Shown here one piece after another: positions 1 to 6,919 of a stretch of DNA of 64,000 nt (positions are counted from its first letter, which is position 1; the number at the start of each line of letters is the position of its first letter). A program made the translations under genes and the position numbers. Location: assembly GCA_041671505.1 (NCBI GenBank), contig JBAZBK010000010.1, positions 46,838 to 110,837 on the forward strand, in the 5' to 3' direction. The notes under the pieces are model-generated. The model was not told the origin of the DNA, made no database searches, and saw nothing but the letters and a program-made list of their open reading frames with translations. This stretch comes from Thermoanaerobaculia bacterium (GTDB lineage Bacteria > Acidobacteriota > Thermoanaerobaculia > Gp7-AA8).

Positions 1-668
1 TCGTTGAGGTGCACGGTGTTGTAGTACGCCTTCAGCGAGAACGTCGAATTGATCGCCGCGGTCACCGCGGCGGAGTTGAGGAAACGCCAGTTGTCCGAAT
101 TCTCGAGATCGTGGATGTAGTTCACGTTATCGGTGAATTCCGCCGTCTTCGAGAAGACGTACTTGTACTTGGCGAACAGCGTGCCGGTCGCGAAGTCGCT
201 GTCTTCACCGATCGTCCGCGACTCCGACGTGTAGCCGACGCCCGCGCCGAGATCGAGGACGTGCTTCTCGCCGGTCAGCGCCTTCCAGGCGACACCGGTG
301 TCGCCGCTGATGTTCGAGTCGATGCCCGAAAACTCGTCGGAGAGGTAGACGATGCGCGCGTAGTAGTCGAGCCGCTCGCTGATCGGTCGACTCGCGCCGA
401 AGAGAGCTCCGAGCTTCTCGGCGCTCTTCACGCCATCGGTCTCCGCCTCGACGTAACTCACCTTGAAATCGTAGGTCCAGACGCCCGGCTTGTAGTGGAG
501 CTCGCCACCGAGGCCGAGCGAGCTTGTGTCGGTGTTGCCGCTCGTTGCGACATACGACAGCTCGGCCGAACCGGTCCACGGACTCTTCGGAGCGTCCTGG
601 GCAATCGCCGGCACGCACGCCGCCAGCACTACGACCATCACTGCGAGATAGCGTCGCACTCCGATCAT
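1..668 (-). CDS. DUF481/YdiY-like outer-membrane beta-barrel protein (partial; C-terminus lies beyond window start)
   Basis: Reverse-complement translation from ATG (rc of cat at 666-668) gives MIGVRRYLAVMVVVLAACVPAIAQ (signal peptide) followed by ...ELSYVATSGNTDTSSLGLGGELHYK...WTYDFKVSYVEAETDG..., typical of the DUF481 salt-induced OMP family. There is no in-window stop, so it is absent from the ORF track. GGAG RBS upstream. Confidence 0.5.
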   Translation of the reverse strand, partial: MIGVRRYLAVMVVVLAACVPAIAQDAPKSPWTGSAELSYVATSGNTDTSSLGLGGELHYKPGVWTYDFKVSYVEAETDGVKSAEKLGALFGASRPISERLDYYARIVYLSDEFSGIDSNISGDTGVAWKALTGEKHVLDLGAGVGYTSESRTIGEDSDFATGTLFAKYKYVFSKTAEFTDNVNYIHDLENSDNWRFLNSAAVTAAINSTFSLKAYYNTVHLN

Positions 669-713: not shown

Positions 714-1598
714 TCAACCGGCATAGAGCAGGTCGAGCAGTTTTTCCTCGATCTCCCGGAACCCTCTCGTCGACTTCAGCCCTGCATCGCGCTGCTCGAA
801 GAACGGGACGTCGACGCGGTGGAGCACTCTCGCGGGGCGCGCCGAAAGGACGTAAACGCTGTCAGCGAGATACACCGCCTCCGAAACGTCGTGCGTGACG
901 AAGAGCGTCGTGTTGTCTTCGTGCCTGGAGACGTCGAGCAGAAGGCTCTGCATTCCCCAGCGCGTCTGCGGATCGAGGGCCCCGAACGGCTCGTCCATCA
1001 GCACGACGCGAGGCTTGTTGATCAGCGTCCTCGCGATCGCGACGCGCTGCTTCATCCCGCCCGAGAGGTCCTTCGGATAACGCTCGGCGAAATCGGCCAG
1101 GCCGACCTCTTCGAGATACTTCTCCGACAGCCCTTTTCGCTCGCCGCGGGAGACACCATGCAGCTTGAGCCCGTACTCGACGTTCTCCCGCACGGTGAGC
1201 CAGCCGAACGACGTGTAGGCCTGGAAGACCATTCCGCGGTCGCGGCCCGGCTCGTCGATGCGCTTCCCGTCGAGGAACACCTCCCCCTGCGTCGGCGCGA
1301 TGAGACCGGCGACCGCCTTGAGGATCGTCGACTTTCCGCAACCCGATGGGCCGAGGAAGACGATCACCTCGCCGACGCCAGGCTTGTCGACCACGTCGAA
1401 CGCGATATCACGCACGGCATCGACGCCGCGTCCGGTACGGTCGAGGTAGGTGTGGGAGAGATCCTTCACGCGGAGGCGCGGCATCGGGCCCGACTGGTCG
1501 GGCTTGACCCAGGTCGCCTCACGGCGCGGGCGGTCGACGGTGACCGCCACGGTTCCCGCCTCTCCAGCGTGCGGCAGCGGCTTCGACGCGTCGCTCAC
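714..1598 (-). CDS. ABC transporter ATP-binding protein (sulfonate/nitrate/taurine SsuB/TauB-like)
   Basis: Walker A GPSGCGKST, ABC signature LSGGMKQRVAIARTL, Walker B VVLMDEPFGALD and H-loop THD. Start chosen at GTG 1598, which has an AAGGAG RBS and a GTGA overlap with the permease stop. An alternative ATG at 1484 (MPRLRVKDL) has no RBS. The 527-aa ORF in the track is over-extended. Confidence 0.85.
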   Translation of the reverse strand: MSDASKPLPHAGEAGTVAVTVDRPRREATWVKPDQSGPMPRLRVKDLSHTYLDRTGRGVDAVRDIAFDVVDKPGVGEVIVFLGPSGCGKSTILKAVAGLIAPTQGEVFLDGKRIDEPGRDRGMVFQAYTSFGWLTVRENVEYGLKLHGVSRGERKGLSEKYLEEVGLADFAERYPKDLSGGMKQRVAIARTLINKPRVVLMDEPFGALDPQTRWGMQSLLLDVSRHEDNTTLFVTHDVSEAVYLADSVYVLSARPARVLHRVDVPFFEQRDAGLKSTRGFREIEEKLLDLLYAG

Positions 1599-2395: not shown

Positions 2396-2459
2396 TGGAG
2401 CTCCCGGGGGCGCCCCGCTTCGCGGGGCGCCCGTGTCGAGGGTCAGGTCTCGAAAATCG

Positions 2460-4094
2460 TCACTCGCTGAGAACGACCTTGATGTCGGTCCGGCGGTTCA
2501 GCTGGCGCCCCGCCTCGGTCTCGTTCGTTTCGAGCGGATTCGACGAGCCACGGCCGATCGTCTGGAACCGGGACGGCTCGATGTTCGGGAAGTTCTTGAC
2601 GATGTAGTTCTTCACCGCGATCGCGCGTCTGTCCGACAGCGTGAGATTTGCCGCGACGGAGCCGGTCGAGTCGGTGTTCCCTTCGATGCGCAGGTAGGTG
2701 TTGCCGAACGACGTCATCGTGTCGCCGAGAGCGTCGAGGACGAAGTACGAGCCCGCCATGATCTCGTCCGAGCCGGGGGTGAAGTGAATCTGGATCTGCT
2801 TGTTGATGATCGCGCGGTCGTTCTTCGACGGCGGCTTCGCGGCGATCTTCGGCTCTTCGACCTTCTGTCCGGGGTACTGCGAGGCGAGCGCCGAGAGGAA
2901 GCGCGGATCGGCCCAGTCCTTCGCGTCGATCGCGCGCGTGACCAGCCCCTTCTTGCGCCAGATCACGAACGCCGTATTGAAAAGCGTGTCGTAGTGCGCC
3001 TTGCCGCCCGAGAGCCCGTAGAACTGCGCGTTGTCGGCAAAGGTCGTGAGCTTGAGCCCCGAGAGCATTCCCGAGACCGTCTCACCGTCGAGCTTGAGTG
3101 CGCGCCCGACCACGTCGTACGACGACGCCGGATCCTTCTTCATCATCTCGATCCCCTCGAGCCAGCCGTAGACGAAGTCGCGCACCGTCTCGGGGTAGCG
3201 GTCGATGAGATCCTGACGCGCGACGAGCGTGTCGGCGATGATGTTCGAAGCGGCCGTGGTCGACACGAGGACATGCGCCTCGTCACCGCGCGCGGCGACC
3301 GCGCCCGAAAGATCGGGCTCCCACGTCACGGCGGCGTCGACCTGCTTCGCCTTGAACATCGCGGCGGCGGCAGGCGCATCCTGCGTGAAGATGATGTCCT
3401 TCTCGACCTGGCCGCGATCCTCGGGCGAGAGGCCCGATTGCGCCAGCATGTAGAGAAGAAGGAAGTGCGACGGAGTGAACTGGGTGCAGGCGACCTTGTG
3501 CCCCTTGAGCTGCTCGATCGACTTGATCGACGAGAGCGAGACGATGCCGTCCCCGCCGCGCGACCAGTCCTGGAGGATGATCGACTTCGCCTTCTGGTTC
3601 TGCTCGGAGAGGATCGAGGCCTCGCGCGCCCAGTTGTCGACCGTGTCCCACATGATGTCGACGTCGCCCTTCCGGAACGCCGCGAGCTTCGCGGCCGGAT
3701 CTTCGATCAGAACGAACTTCACGTCGAGACCGAACCGCTGCCGGTACGTCGACGCCGCGCTCGGGTCCATGCCGCCGTTGAACACGATCCCGGGGGCATG
3801 GCCCGCCCAGGTATTGATCGCAACCACGAGCGGCCGGTCGAGTTTGCCGGTTCCGCCGAGCGCCGCCTGCGTCACGCCGTTCGAGCCGACGCCGCGGTCG
3901 GGGTCGGCGGGGGCGTTGTTCAGCGCGGAGAAGTCGGACTGCGAGACTCCCTCGGCGGGAGCCTTGGCTTCCTCGGCGTTCTTGCCGGTCGCCCACTTGC
4001 GGATGTCGGCTCCCTTGTAGTGCCAGGCCGTGTACCCGACGACGACCAGGATGATCAGAGTGATGAAGATCTTCGCGAACGGTGTCAGTTTCAT
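2460..4094 (-). CDS. Membrane-anchored NMT1/SsuA/TauA-like substrate-binding protein fused to a C-terminal OmpA/MotB-like peptidoglycan-binding domain
   Basis: N-terminal TM helix (IFITLIILVVVGYTAW), a central SsuA/NMT1-type SBP fold, and a C-terminal OmpA_C signature (YLRIEGNTDSTGSVAANLTLSDRRAIAVKNYIV...GRGSSNPLETNETEAGRQLNRRTDIKV). First gene of the ABC operon. Confidence 0.8.
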   Translation of the reverse strand: MKLTPFAKIFITLIILVVVGYTAWHYKGADIRKWATGKNAEEAKAPAEGVSQSDFSALNNAPADPDRGVGSNGVTQAALGGTGKLDRPLVVAINTWAGHAPGIVFNGGMDPSAASTYRQRFGLDVKFVLIEDPAAKLAAFRKGDVDIMWDTVDNWAREASILSEQNQKAKSIILQDWSRGGDGIVSLSSIKSIEQLKGHKVACTQFTPSHFLLLYMLAQSGLSPEDRGQVEKDIIFTQDAPAAAAMFKAKQVDAAVTWEPDLSGAVAARGDEAHVLVSTTAASNIIADTLVARQDLIDRYPETVRDFVYGWLEGIEMMKKDPASSYDVVGRALKLDGETVSGMLSGLKLTTFADNAQFYGLSGGKAHYDTLFNTAFVIWRKKGLVTRAIDAKDWADPRFLSALASQYPGQKVEEPKIAAKPPSKNDRAIINKQIQIHFTPGSDEIMAGSYFVLDALGDTMTSFGNTYLRIEGNTDSTGSVAANLTLSDRRAIAVKNYIVKNFPNIEPSRFQTIGRGSSNPLETNETEAGRQLNRRTDIKVVLSE

Positions 4095-4244
4095 TCTCGA
4101 GCCCTCGATTCCCGCCCTGAGGCGGCTGAATTCGTGCCTGTTTGAATCCGAAGAGTATACGTTGAATCGACTGCGGACGACTCCCGTCCAGGGCGTCCAC
4201 CGGAGGTGCGAATCGCGCTAGACTCTTCGGTGCATCGGAAGGCC

Positions 4245-5195
4245 ATGAACGAACCGACGCGCGGCAGCGCGCTCCTCGTGGGATTCATCGACGCGGGCCC
4301 GGTCGAGTTGGTGAGGCAGTGCGGCTACACCGCTCGAATGGCCCCGCCGTGGGCCGCGCTTCAGGCGGTCCGCGAACGAGAGTGCGACCTCGTGATCGTC
4401 CGCCTCACCGGCGCGTTCCGCGACGTGTTCGACCTGATCGAAGGGGCGCGAACGGAGGGAGTTCCGATTCTCGCCACCGTCACGAACGACGAGCGCGAGC
4501 GCGAGCGTGCATGGGAGGCCGGCGCCTCCGACTGCATCGTCGAGCCGTTCGGAATCGTCGAGCTCAGGCAGAGACTGCGGCTTCAGTCGACGATCGGGGA
4601 TCTGCGCACCGACGTCAGGCGGCTCGAGACCGCGCTGGACGACGCCGCGATCGCGCTCGACGAAGCGCGCGGCGCCGCCACACTGCAGTCGATGAAGGAC
4701 GACCTCACCGGCGTCGGCAACGTGAAGCGCTTCTACACGGCCCTGGAGCTCGAGTGGAAGCGCGCGGCGCGGACGGGTTCGCGTGTCTCGCTGCTGCTGG
4801 CCGACATCGACCAGTTCCGCCTCTACAACGAGCGGAGCGGCCACGCGAGCGGCGACGACTGCCTCAGGGAGATTGCAGGGACGCTCGCCTCCGGCGTGAG
4901 CCGTGCGGGCGACCTGCTTGCGCGCTTCGGCGGCGAGGAGTTCGTCGTACTCCTTCCGTCGACGTCGCACGAGGCGGCGCTCGCCGTCGCCCGGAGGCTC
5001 GCCCAAAACGTCAGGGACCTCGCCCTGCCTCACGAGGCCTCGGCTCCCGGGATCGTGACCGTGAGCTTCGGCGTCGCCACGGCGACACCGTCGGAATCGT
5101 CGGCGCCCGCGTCGCTTCTCGCAGCCGCCGAGGAAGCGCTCCTCGCCGCGAAGGCGGGGGGACGAAACCGGGTCGCCGGCCGTTTCGCCGGTTAG
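4245..5195 (+). CDS. Response-regulator-like (pseudo-receiver) GGDEF diguanylate cyclase
   Basis: GGDEF domain with an intact GGEEF motif (RFGGEEFVVLL) and an RxxD-like context. The N-terminal REC-like domain lacks the phospho-acceptor Asp (DLVIVRL rather than D-hhhh-D). Start taken at ATG 4245 (MNEPTRG). Confidence 0.8.
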   Translation: MNEPTRGSALLVGFIDAGPVELVRQCGYTARMAPPWAALQAVRERECDLVIVRLTGAFRDVFDLIEGARTEGVPILATVTNDERERERAWEAGASDCIVEPFGIVELRQRLRLQSTIGDLRTDVRRLETALDDAAIALDEARGAATLQSMKDDLTGVGNVKRFYTALELEWKRAARTGSRVSLLLADIDQFRLYNERSGHASGDDCLREIAGTLASGVSRAGDLLARFGGEEFVVLLPSTSHEAALAVARRLAQNVRDLALPHEASAPGIVTVSFGVATATPSESSAPASLLAAAEEALLAAKAGGRNRVAGRFAG

Positions 5196-5263
5196 GCTCC
5201 GCGCGGCGCCTCTCGCCCGTCTGCCGACCGATCTGCCCGCCAGTAGAAAGGCATGAACAAACG

Positions 5264-5291
5264 AAAAGGCCCGGCGATCGCCGGGCCTTTT
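5264..5291. terminator. Bidirectional Rho-independent terminator between convergent genes
   Basis: aaaaGGCCCGGCGatcGCCGGGCCtttt. A perfect 9-bp GC stem flanked by A4/T4, between the GGDEF gene (+) and the repeat protein (-). Confidence 0.6.
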
Positions 5292-5311
5292 CACGCTGGG
5301 GTCAGGTTAGG

Positions 5312-6919
5312 TTACTGCTGGATGTTGTCGACGTAGAAATCGACCGAGCCGATTTCGGCGCGCTGCCCGCCGGTGGTGCTCAACGCGGTGACCGTCAGCC
5401 GGTGCCTTCCGTCGGCGAGCTGCGTGGTGTCCATGTTGAAGCGCCAGCCGCTGCGCTGCGCGACGAGCCCGTACGACGGATACGCGGCCTGTACGTCAGT
5501 TCGGAGGAACCCGTACTCCGCGACTCCCGCGACCACGCCGTCGATCTGGATCTCGACGGTGGCAACCTGCTGGACAGCCCAGCCGAGGAACTGCACCGTC
5601 CCCTTGACGTAGTCGTAGTTGCCCGGGAAGTCGATGTATCCGACCGGGGCGAAGGTGTTGTTGCGCATACAGCTGAAGAACACCGGGATGCCGGCAGTGC
5701 CAGGGAGCTCGGCGAACGTCTGCTCCTGGTCGCCGACGCGAACCTTCAGAACGTGCGCGCCTTCGTTGACGCCCGCCTTGTAGAGGCTGCCGACGTCCAT
5801 CGCGAAGTAGTAGCCCGCACGCGGTGAATCGGGGTGCGTCGGGAAATACCTGGCCACATCGGGGCGCGGCATACCGTAGCAATCGACCAGGGCGCCGTAG
5901 GCGGTGACGAAGCGGCAGTCGTCGGTCGAGTACCAGCGCACGCCGTCGATCAGCAGCTCCGCATAGGCGACGCGCCCCGTGTCTTCACGAGTGCCGAGGT
6001 CGAGGGCCCAGCCGCGGACCGGCGTGATGCGGTTCTCGGGAGTGAATGGCGGTGAAACCACCGGGCCGGAGTTTTCGCAGTTTCCGAAGAGGACCGCGTC
6101 GCGCTGCGGCTGGTCGAGCGAGCCGAACGGCCGGAGGTTGTTCTCGCTGTTGAAGACCTGGATCGTGCGCCGTCCGATGACCCGGCTCAACCCGTTGCGG
6201 TCCGTCGCGCGGACGGTCATCGTGTGGATGCCGTCGATCAGGCGCGTCGAATCGACCTGCGACAGGAAGCCGCTGTAGAGCGATGACGGAAGGTCGGGGA
6301 AAGAGTTGTGGACGTCGGGACGAGGATCGCCGTAGTTCGCTGACTGCGTGCTCAGCCCATCGATCTGCACGTCGATGCGCGCGATGCCGTCAACGTCCGC
6401 AGCCCATCCCGAAACCGGGAACGAACCGTTGACATCGTAGACCGCGACCGAGTCGGGAGTCTCGAGGTAACCGAACGGAGGCTGGTTGATCGTATTGTCG
6501 ACGACGATCGTCCGCTGCCCCACCTCGTACACCTTGTTGTCCTCGGTGAAGATGCGAACCATCACGGTGTGCGTGCCGTTCGAGTAACGCGCCGCGGAGA
6601 ACCCCGTCTGGTAGCCAGGAAGGCGATTCTGCGTCCCGCTCCAATCGGGGTTCGACTCGACGACGTCGGTCCGCGGAATCGACAGGTTCGCCGAGTGGAC
6701 GTACAGCCCGTCGACGATCAGATCAATTCTCGAAATACCGACGGGATCGACGGCCCACCCCTGAACGAGAACCATCCCTGAGACAGTCTCGTTTGGAACC
6801 GGCTTCTCGAGGAAAGCGATGAATTCCGTCTGGGCCGACACCGAAGACACAAGGCTCATGACCAAGAGCCCGAGGACCAGCCCGCGGGTAACCATTCTCC
6901 ACATAACCCACACCTCCAA
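5312..6919 (-). CDS. Secreted protein with four ~125-150 aa tandem Ig-like repeats (unknown function)
   Basis: Signal peptide MWRMVTRGLVLGLLVMSLVSSVSAQ. Four repeats share the motif PFG.L..P......GWA.D..G..R(I/V)D..IDG....A.YG..RPDV...FP. Confidence 0.6.
   Translation of the reverse strand: MEVWVMWRMVTRGLVLGLLVMSLVSSVSAQTEFIAFLEKPVPNETVSGMVLVQGWAVDPVGISRIDLIVDGLYVHSANLSIPRTDVVESNPDWSGTQNRLPGYQTGFSAARYSNGTHTVMVRIFTEDNKVYEVGQRTIVVDNTINQPPFGYLETPDSVAVYDVNGSFPVSGWAADVDGIARIDVQIDGLSTQSANYGDPRPDVHNSFPDLPSSLYSGFLSQVDSTRLIDGIHTMTVRATDRNGLSRVIGRRTIQVFNSENNLRPFGSLDQPQRDAVLFGNCENSGPVVSPPFTPENRITPVRGWALDLGTREDTGRVAYAELLIDGVRWYSTDDCRFVTAYGALVDCYGMPRPDVARYFPTHPDSPRAGYYFAMDVGSLYKAGVNEGAHVLKVRVGDQEQTFAELPGTAGIPVFFSCMRNNTFAPVGYIDFPGNYDYVKGTVQFLGWAVQQVATVEIQIDGVVAGVAEYGFLRTDVQAAYPSYGLVAQRSGWRFNMDTTQLADGRHRLTVTALSTTGGQRAEIGSVDFYVDNIQQ

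Follow-up and report, generated by a model that had tools for sequence, protein, structure and literature searches.

The substrate-binding proteins (SBPs) TauA and SsuA of Escherichia coli are free in the periplasm, are made with a cleaved signal peptide, and carry no OmpA domain. Tethered SBPs are also known, among them the lipoprotein SBPs of Gram-positive bacteria, NrtA and CmpA of the cyanobacteria, archaeal SBPs anchored by a transmembrane (TM) helix, and the SBPs fused to the permease in OpuA and GlnPQ. An SBP joined to an OmpA-like domain is encoded on the minus strand, at positions 2460-4094, of a 64,000-nucleotide stretch of a Thermoanaerobaculia bacterium genome (assembly GCA_041671505.1, contig JBAZBK010000010.1, positions 46,838 to 110,837); this whole stretch is referred to below as the window. 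Its closest described counterpart is the protein that Ravi et al., using comparative genomics, placed in a PspA / ABC / TM-Snf7 / AAA+ operon, including that of the Handelsmanbacteria, and for which they proposed attachment to the cell wall through OmpA and recognition of the transported solute by the periplasmic binding protein (PBP) domain (Ravi et al., 2024; PMC11237479). The window protein shares with their PBPB-OmpA protein the succession of hydrophobic segment, PBP domain and OmpA domain, followed by a permease and an ABC ATPase. The initial annotation of the window suggested a mechanism, fixation of the receptor in the periplasm, that coincides with this published proposal. Since both the architecture and the mechanistic idea have been published by Ravi et al. 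and the protein is named at NCBI, they were already known; as an architecture the fusion changes little, being catalogued, named and interpreted in print much as in the initial annotation. What remains of interest is the biochemistry of the family, and a linkage to PspA and ESCRT-III-like proteins that the window copy happens to lack.

The fusion of both domains in one protein is real. The open reading frame (ORF) of 544 amino acid residues is single and unbroken, begins with ATG preceded by a GAGGG Shine-Dalgarno-like sequence, and ends with a stop codon at 2460-2462; the strings GNTDSTGSVAANLTLSDRRA and NRRTDIKV are both present in its translation. The product comprises, in order, a hydrophobic helix, a linker of ~60 residues, a TauA/SsuA-like domain (residues ~87-400), and an OmpA-like domain (~431-541). 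The AlphaFold2 model, built on 21 homologues, has a mean predicted local distance difference test (pLDDT) score of 81 and a predicted TM-score (pTM) of 0.77, with both domains folded: a helix at residues 5-25 is followed by a confident two-lobed alpha/beta structure at 87-400 and a beta-alpha-beta-alpha-beta-beta arrangement at 428-542. When the model was compared with the PDB using Foldseek, both domains matched known counterparts; the top match (6aeo; TM 0.24) is an engineered MBP-TssL crystallisation chimera and was disregarded. A single ORF of 539-550 residues is present in all 81 related loci. Conservation by region, expressed as the majority-residue frequency in the alignment of these loci, is highest in the binding domain (0.89) and the OmpA domain (0.87), lower in the N-terminal helix and the interdomain linker (0.77 each), and lowest in the first linker (0.60).

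Residues 87-400 (window 2895-3836, minus strand) constitute a class II two-lobed binding domain of the NMT1/SsuA/TauA type, which belongs to the NitT/TauT family. The Pfam matches to NMT1 (residues 182-323; 42.0 bits versus a cut-off of 20.5), Phosphonate-bd (119-309; 38.9 versus 27) and NMT1_2 (161-321; 32.0 versus 24.7) are all above threshold, and the NCBIfam models SsuA_fam, ABC_peri_uca and TauA extend the match to residues 116-352, with SsuA_fam (168-344) and ABC_peri_uca (116-352) both scoring below their cut-offs. By Foldseek the nearest structures are those of E. coli TauA (6ssy; TMt 0.80) and SsuA (2x26; TMt 0.78), and ThiY, PqqT, NrtA and CmpA were also retrieved. The domain is therefore like TauA and SsuA in its fold, its Pfam clan and the type of permease and ATPase that accompany it, but it is only ~19-22% identical to them in sequence. 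At the equivalog level TIGR01728 (SsuA_fam) reached 87.7 bits versus the 163.5 required and TIGR01729 (TauA) 44.1 versus 304, and as these cut-offs are missed the substrate is not assignable from the families.

To map the binding pocket, the domain was aligned with TauA using HMMER and read against the published taurine contacts, in which Glu106 makes the essential contact with the amine, Asp205 also contacts the amine, Trp176 contributes van der Waals interactions, the loop at Gly79 holds the sulfonate, and Thr132 touches both sulfonate and amine (PMC6906117). The conserved SBP residues of the fusion family fall on these taurine-binding loops. Glu106 corresponds to the loop DWSRGGD-G (D182/G183), Asp205 to D288 (Asp in 18 of 21 diverse fusions), Trp176 to W258, the Gly79 loop to T151-V-D153, and Thr132 to the motif T207-P208-S-H; the counterparts of Trp176, Asp205 and the Glu106 loop are conserved. 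Motifs retained on alignment of the diverse fusions are TVD, DWSRGGD, TPSH, WEPD, IAD and ADN. Because the amine contacts of TauA have counterparts here, and because acidic and aromatic residues, but no basic one, are invariant in the pocket across the family, we tentatively surmise that the ligand may be no simple anion but a small solute with an amine or cationic group. The SBP-OmpA and ABC genes of a Fimbriimonadaceae metagenome-assembled genome (MAG) are immediately preceded by one for a spermine/spermidine synthase (locus L090, 4878-5720); this single locus, together with the acidic and aromatic pocket residues, hints at a polyamine-like ligand.

The OmpA-like domain, of the OmpA_C/MotB/Pal type, occupies residues 431-541 (window 2472-2804, minus strand) and is joined to the binding domain by an interdomain linker of residues 401-430 (2805-2894, minus strand; pLDDT 64-69). 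Pfam OmpA (PF00691) matches residues 438-534 over profile positions 2-98 of 98, with E=3.3e-16 and 59.8 bits versus a cut-off of 27.2. Sequence matches in the PDB include 5wtp, 5u1h (OprF) and 3td3, and Foldseek likewise retrieved the C-terminal domain of C. gingivalis OmpA (5wtp; TMt 0.83, root-mean-square deviation [rmsd] 1.1-1.5 Å, 37% identity) and the peptidoglycan-binding domain of OprF. The motif G472-N-T-D475...N483..L486-S..R490-A...N533-R-R-T-D is intact and aligns directly with both of these proteins, D475 (NTD) and R490 (RRA) corresponding to their TD and RA. In two alignments of fusions 27-65% identical to one another, one of them covering 21 diverse fusions, R490 never varies and D475 is kept in 90% or more of the sequences. 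The equivalent Asp/Arg pair touches the diaminopimelate of the peptide stem in the complexes of A. baumannii OmpA and of Pal, and non-covalent binding of peptidoglycan through D475/R490 is predicted for the fusion. The reading of the gene as an SBP fused to an OmpA_C domain, made originally from the sequence alone, was thus correct, the Pfam matches being above their cut-offs and the folds agreeing with those of TauA/SsuA and OmpA C-terminal domains.

Hydropathy analysis reveals a single hydrophobic stretch in the protein, at residues 1 to ~26 (window 4017-4094, minus strand), where a basic N-terminus (K2, K8) precedes the hydrophobic helix. Cys is absent from the first 30 residues, and with it any lipobox, so that the protein is not a lipoprotein and a lipid anchor is ruled out. 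The first linker (residues 27-86; 3837-4016, minus strand) is predicted with low confidence (pLDDT 44-58) and includes short helices at 29-36 and 52-59. Two motifs stand out in this otherwise variable region: the juxtamembrane WHYKGxxIRKWAxG (residues 24-37), and DFxALxNAPxDPxR (residues 54-67; window 3894-3935, minus strand), which is recognisable even in ~43% identical relatives. They may serve for contact with the permease or with partners encoded in the PspA cluster discussed below.

The overall plan recalls that of OmpA-like proteins anchored in the inner membrane, and sequence matches to Rv0899 (2l26), YiaD (2k1s), MotB and TssL were indeed obtained. MotB, ArfA/Rv0899 of M. tuberculosis (TM-BON-OmpA), YiaD and TssL reach from membrane to wall by an N-terminal anchor, a middle domain and a C-terminal OmpA-like wall-binding domain, a layout that the fusion would share if its helix stays uncleaved; unlike in these proteins, the middle domain of the fusion is the binding protein of an ABC transporter, and a MotA or type VI secretion system partner is absent. 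The likeness to tethered or fused SBPs such as NrtA/CmpA and OpuA/GlnPQ is that the receptor would be kept beside its own transporter instead of diffusing. Whereas these SBPs are tethered to the membrane or permease only, the fusion would add a second tether directed at the wall.

Directly downstream of the fusion gene and on the same strand are genes for an ABC importer permease of 266 residues (BPD_transp_1, TauC/SsuC/SaoP-like by Pfam and NCBIfam; 1595-2395) and an ABC ATPase (TauB/SaoA-like; 714-1598), as expected from the SsuABC/TauABC-like operon originally proposed. The permease stop and the ATPase start overlap as GTGA at 1595-1598 (minus strand), with the site GGAAGGAGAA upstream; the GTG at 1598, the probable start, gives the ATPase a 38-residue N-terminal extension over the conserved core that begins at the ATG at 1484. 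In a tblastn search for the neighbouring proteins, 79 of the 81 loci had the permease, and 78 the ATPase, directly after the fusion gene. The same pair also follows the fusion gene in relatives of as little as ~36-39% identity (P0133, P0366, P0377, P0123 and P0121).

The initial annotation regarded this architecture as unusual, but it is neither rare nor unrecognised. A scan of one genome per species detected relatives in 277 genomes; the best 80 of these are all Acidobacteriota-type MAGs (labelled Thermoanaerobaculia, Vicinamibacteria, Holophagales or Pyrinomonadaceae) whose proteins show 75-92% identity. HMMER, run against 1.84 billion cluster representatives (50% identity), gave 334 matches at E<=1e-30. 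Of the best 150 of these 334, most (well over half) are ~500-550 residues long and match query residues ~85-541 in a single alignment with 30-45% identity, and because they align across both domains we consider the fusion to be old and diverse. By their NCBI labels, distant members of the family belong to MAGs from several phyla. A 100% identical protein from a Thermoanaerobaculia MAG (P0001) bears the NCBI name [quoted passage not shown] and the same product name is used in MAGs labelled Ca. Magnetobacterium-like, Fimbriimonadaceae, Cloacimonetes and others; "phosphate" is probably generic here, the sequence and partners being of the NitT/TauT type. At JGI, relatives are called "NitT/TauT family transport system substrate-binding protein" or [quoted passage not shown] Searches of the literature for the NCBI product name and for tethered, OmpA-bearing or solute-binding proteins of this kind returned nothing, and the study of Ravi et al., on the PSP system, was the only relevant one encountered (PMC11237479).

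In most relatives the transporter is part of a larger operon concerned with membrane maintenance. Seven genes, for a coiled-coil protein, PspA/IM30, SBP-OmpA, permease, ATPase, a TM-hairpin coiled-coil protein and a double AAA+ protein, occur in this order at locus L001 (6607-14127) and at ~65 others (e.g., L004-L012, L084, L087 and L091). Immediately upstream of the fusion gene, PspA/IM30 is encoded in ~66 of the 81 loci, and a coiled-coil protein of ~217 residues before PspA in 67; after the ATPase come a ~305-residue protein (64 loci) that combines a TM hairpin with a coiled coil and is termed "TM+Snf7" by Ravi et al., and a 615-residue protein (~58 loci) with a double AAA+ architecture, the active module of which is related to the D2 domain of p97/Cdc48. 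The orthologues 75-80% identical to the window protein match the gene order of Ravi et al., namely X, PspA, SBP-OmpA, permease, ATPase, TM-Snf7-like and inactive-AAA+AAA. The same or a rearranged cluster surrounds relatives of 59%, 65% and 43% identity and is present in a Cloacimonetes MAG, so that it is conserved from the Acidobacteriota to the Cloacimonetes. This linkage across phyla suggests, from gene neighbourhood, that solute transport may be connected to ESCRT-III-like membrane maintenance. The initial annotation did not recognise this customary setting of the family.

The window differs from this arrangement. Neither PspA nor TM-Snf7-like nor AAA+ genes gave a tblastn match anywhere in its 64 kb, and unlike the operon of Ravi et al., the window locus and two others carrying 91-92% identical proteins (L002 and L003) are without all of them. 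In these loci a divergent GGDEF gene stands upstream and a DUF481 barrel gene follows the ATPase. Given the absence of the PspA, Snf7 and AAA+ partners, the window lineage is a natural "minimal" case of the transporter alone. ABC genes are also retained without PspA by the relative P0133 and by that of the Fimbriimonadaceae MAG.

The TM-SBP(-OmpA) module is found in a further setting, behind N-terminal zf-HC2 and Pkinase, Peptidase_C14 (caspase-like) or AAA_35/STAND NTPase domains. These multi-domain proteins (P0196, P0178, P0146, P0263 and P0136; loci L088 and L089) have a single TM helix, with the module on the extracytoplasmic side, and no ABC genes lie beside their genes; the gene for a STAND fusion adjoins one for a TIR+AAA_35 protein, a context resembling that of conflict systems. 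The occurrence of the module in kinase, caspase-like and STAND proteins appears to be new, in that it was not found in the literature searched, where a query for caspase/OmpA/PBP architectures returned nothing relevant. Pocket and OmpA residues are invariant in transporter and multi-domain contexts alike, which suggests one conserved ligand. The module might be a portable, wall-attached sensor of one periplasmic ligand, possibly amine-bearing or wall-derived, plugged into outputs as varied as ABC transporters with ESCRT-III-like PspA/Snf7 and AAA+ proteins, Ser/Thr kinases, caspase-like proteases, and STAND NTPases near TIR, although we regard this proposal as improbable. If it were true, the window copy would be a stripped-down member of a system in which membrane repair or decisions on cell fate are linked to the state of the wall or the uptake of solutes.

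With moderate confidence we consider the fusion to be the substrate receptor, held in place, of a type I ABC importer of the NitT/TauT family (TauABC/SsuABC-like). The N-terminal helix would insert into the inner membrane in an N-in orientation and probably remain uncleaved; the flexible linker of ~60 residues would carry the TauA-like domain, which would capture a small polar solute and hand it to the permease/ATPase pair encoded immediately downstream; and the OmpA-like domain would hold peptidoglycan non-covalently through Asp475 and Arg490. We propose that, because of both tethers, the receptor, and through it the transporter, would be fixed between inner membrane and wall. On geometric grounds, linkers of ~60 and ~30 residues should allow the binding domain to reach the permease and dock there. 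Several observations weigh against this picture. The pTM of 0.77 hints that the OmpA domain may be packed on the SBP domain in the model, in which case docking could be affected; the NCBIfam equivalog cut-offs for SsuA, TauA, TauC and TauB were all missed; and the pocket differs from that of TauA, since Thr132 itself aligns with the invariant Pro (P208). The module, moreover, does not always serve a transporter, as is evident from the multi-domain fusions without ABC neighbours and from a 38% identical relative (P0278) that is an orphan fusion with no ABC genes nearby. Finally, the N-terminal segment has features of a cleaved signal peptide, namely a lysine-bearing n-region (K2 and K8), a hydrophobic h-region that is ~11-13 residues long, and the helix-breaking Gly20; close relatives mostly read VVGYA|AW, an acceptable small-x-small (G-Y-A) site; and Ravi et al. 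score the segment of an orthologue as SIG, in the architecture SIG+PBPB+OmpA (PMC11237479).

These last features would be explained if a Sec signal peptide were cleaved and the mature SBP, periplasmic and still serving the importer, were attached to peptidoglycan, since after cleavage the wall tether alone would remain. We think this unlikely, though it deserves serious consideration. The window protein itself reads G-Y-T-A-W, which places Thr at -1 or Tyr at -3 and makes a poor signal peptidase I site; about half of the 21 diverse fusions aligned lack a small-x-small motif; the motif WHYKGxxIRKWAxG is conserved after the helix; and the multi-domain kinase, caspase-like and STAND relatives have an internal TM helix at the equivalent position, just before the SBP domain. 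For these reasons the segment is probably an uncleaved signal-anchor, N-terminus inside, which we hold to be about twice as likely as a cleaved Sec signal peptide. Of the N-terminal TM anchor in the initial annotation, the hydrophobic segment is therefore confirmed, while its uncleaved state is likely only, given the SIG label of the published orthologue. The fusions to Pkinase, Peptidase_C14 and AAA_35 without ABC neighbours, the orphan copy, the invariance of the pocket in every context, and the linkage to the envelope-stress protein PspA in ~66 of 81 loci and across phyla would also fit a module that is mainly a sensor, whether of a periplasmic or wall-derived ligand or of the distance from membrane to wall, with net import secondary or absent. 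Such a sensor would signal to whichever proteins are fused or neighbouring, the ABC proteins with PspA/Snf7/AAA+ in most relatives and kinase, caspase-like or STAND NTPase domains in others. We regard this too as improbable, as the permease next to the fusion is a normal subunit of type I importers (BPD_transp_1, TauC-like) paired with a TauB-like ATPase, and the ABC genes of the window, which stand without any signalling or PspA partner, best fit plain transport. That the fusion might be an artefact, whether of frameshift-joined genes or of a chance OmpA-like match, has a negligible probability: only the general expectation that MAG assemblies contain errors speaks for it, whereas the 81 independent loci each have one ORF of full length, the alignments of most of the best 150 representatives run across both domains, and the OmpA match combines an E-value of 3e-16 with a structural agreement of 1.1-1.5 Å. 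The frameshift into two separate genes that had been named as the finding that would overturn the initial annotation was not encountered. The transporter in which the fusion would act as tethered receptor lies within a PspA / TM-Snf7 / AAA+ operon in most relatives and, in the window lineage, stands alone with a DUF481 barrel.

The DUF481 (YdiY-like) gene (PF04338; E=5.9e-34) encodes an outer-membrane beta-barrel protein with a signal peptide and is cut by the window edge (1-668, minus strand). It begins 45 nt after the ATPase gene on the same strand, has an AAGGAG ribosome-binding site, and occurs beside the transporter in the window, L002 and L003 alone, standing there in lieu of the TM-Snf7 and AAA+ genes of other lineages. 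It possibly belongs to the operon in this lineage only, and the solute could cross the outer membrane through the barrel. In the gap that separates the SBP gene from the permease gene is a G+C-rich hairpin (2408-2432, minus strand) with a perfect 11-bp stem, GGGCGCCCCGC-GAA-GCGGGGCGCCC. The gap of 76 nt has a minimum free energy of -36.8 kcal/mol (z = -2.9). The hairpin lacks a T tract, and no intrinsic terminator was called between the two genes. It is kept in L002 and L003 with altered stem and loop bases and is absent from most relatives, in which the gap measures 5-30 nt; it may set the ratio of SBP to permease expression.

A 570-residue ORF on the plus strand (2433-4145), antisense to the whole fusion gene, was rejected as a shadow ORF on account of its Arg- and Asp-rich, low-complexity translation in DNA of 65% G+C, no homology search being aimed at it, and further long overlapping ORFs in the region are likewise shadow ORFs typical of such DNA. 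Divergent from the fusion gene is that for a GGDEF diguanylate cyclase (4206-5195, plus strand), the N-terminus of which is weakly, and below threshold, receiver-like. Between it and a convergent Big_7 gene is a terminator-like hairpin with a 15-bp stem (5261-5294, minus strand), the only one in the first 5.4 kb. The Big_7 gene (5312-6919, minus strand) encodes a secreted protein of 535 residues with repeated bacterial Ig-like (Big_7/Big_13) domains; among the related loci, it adjoins the transporter in L002 and L003 only.

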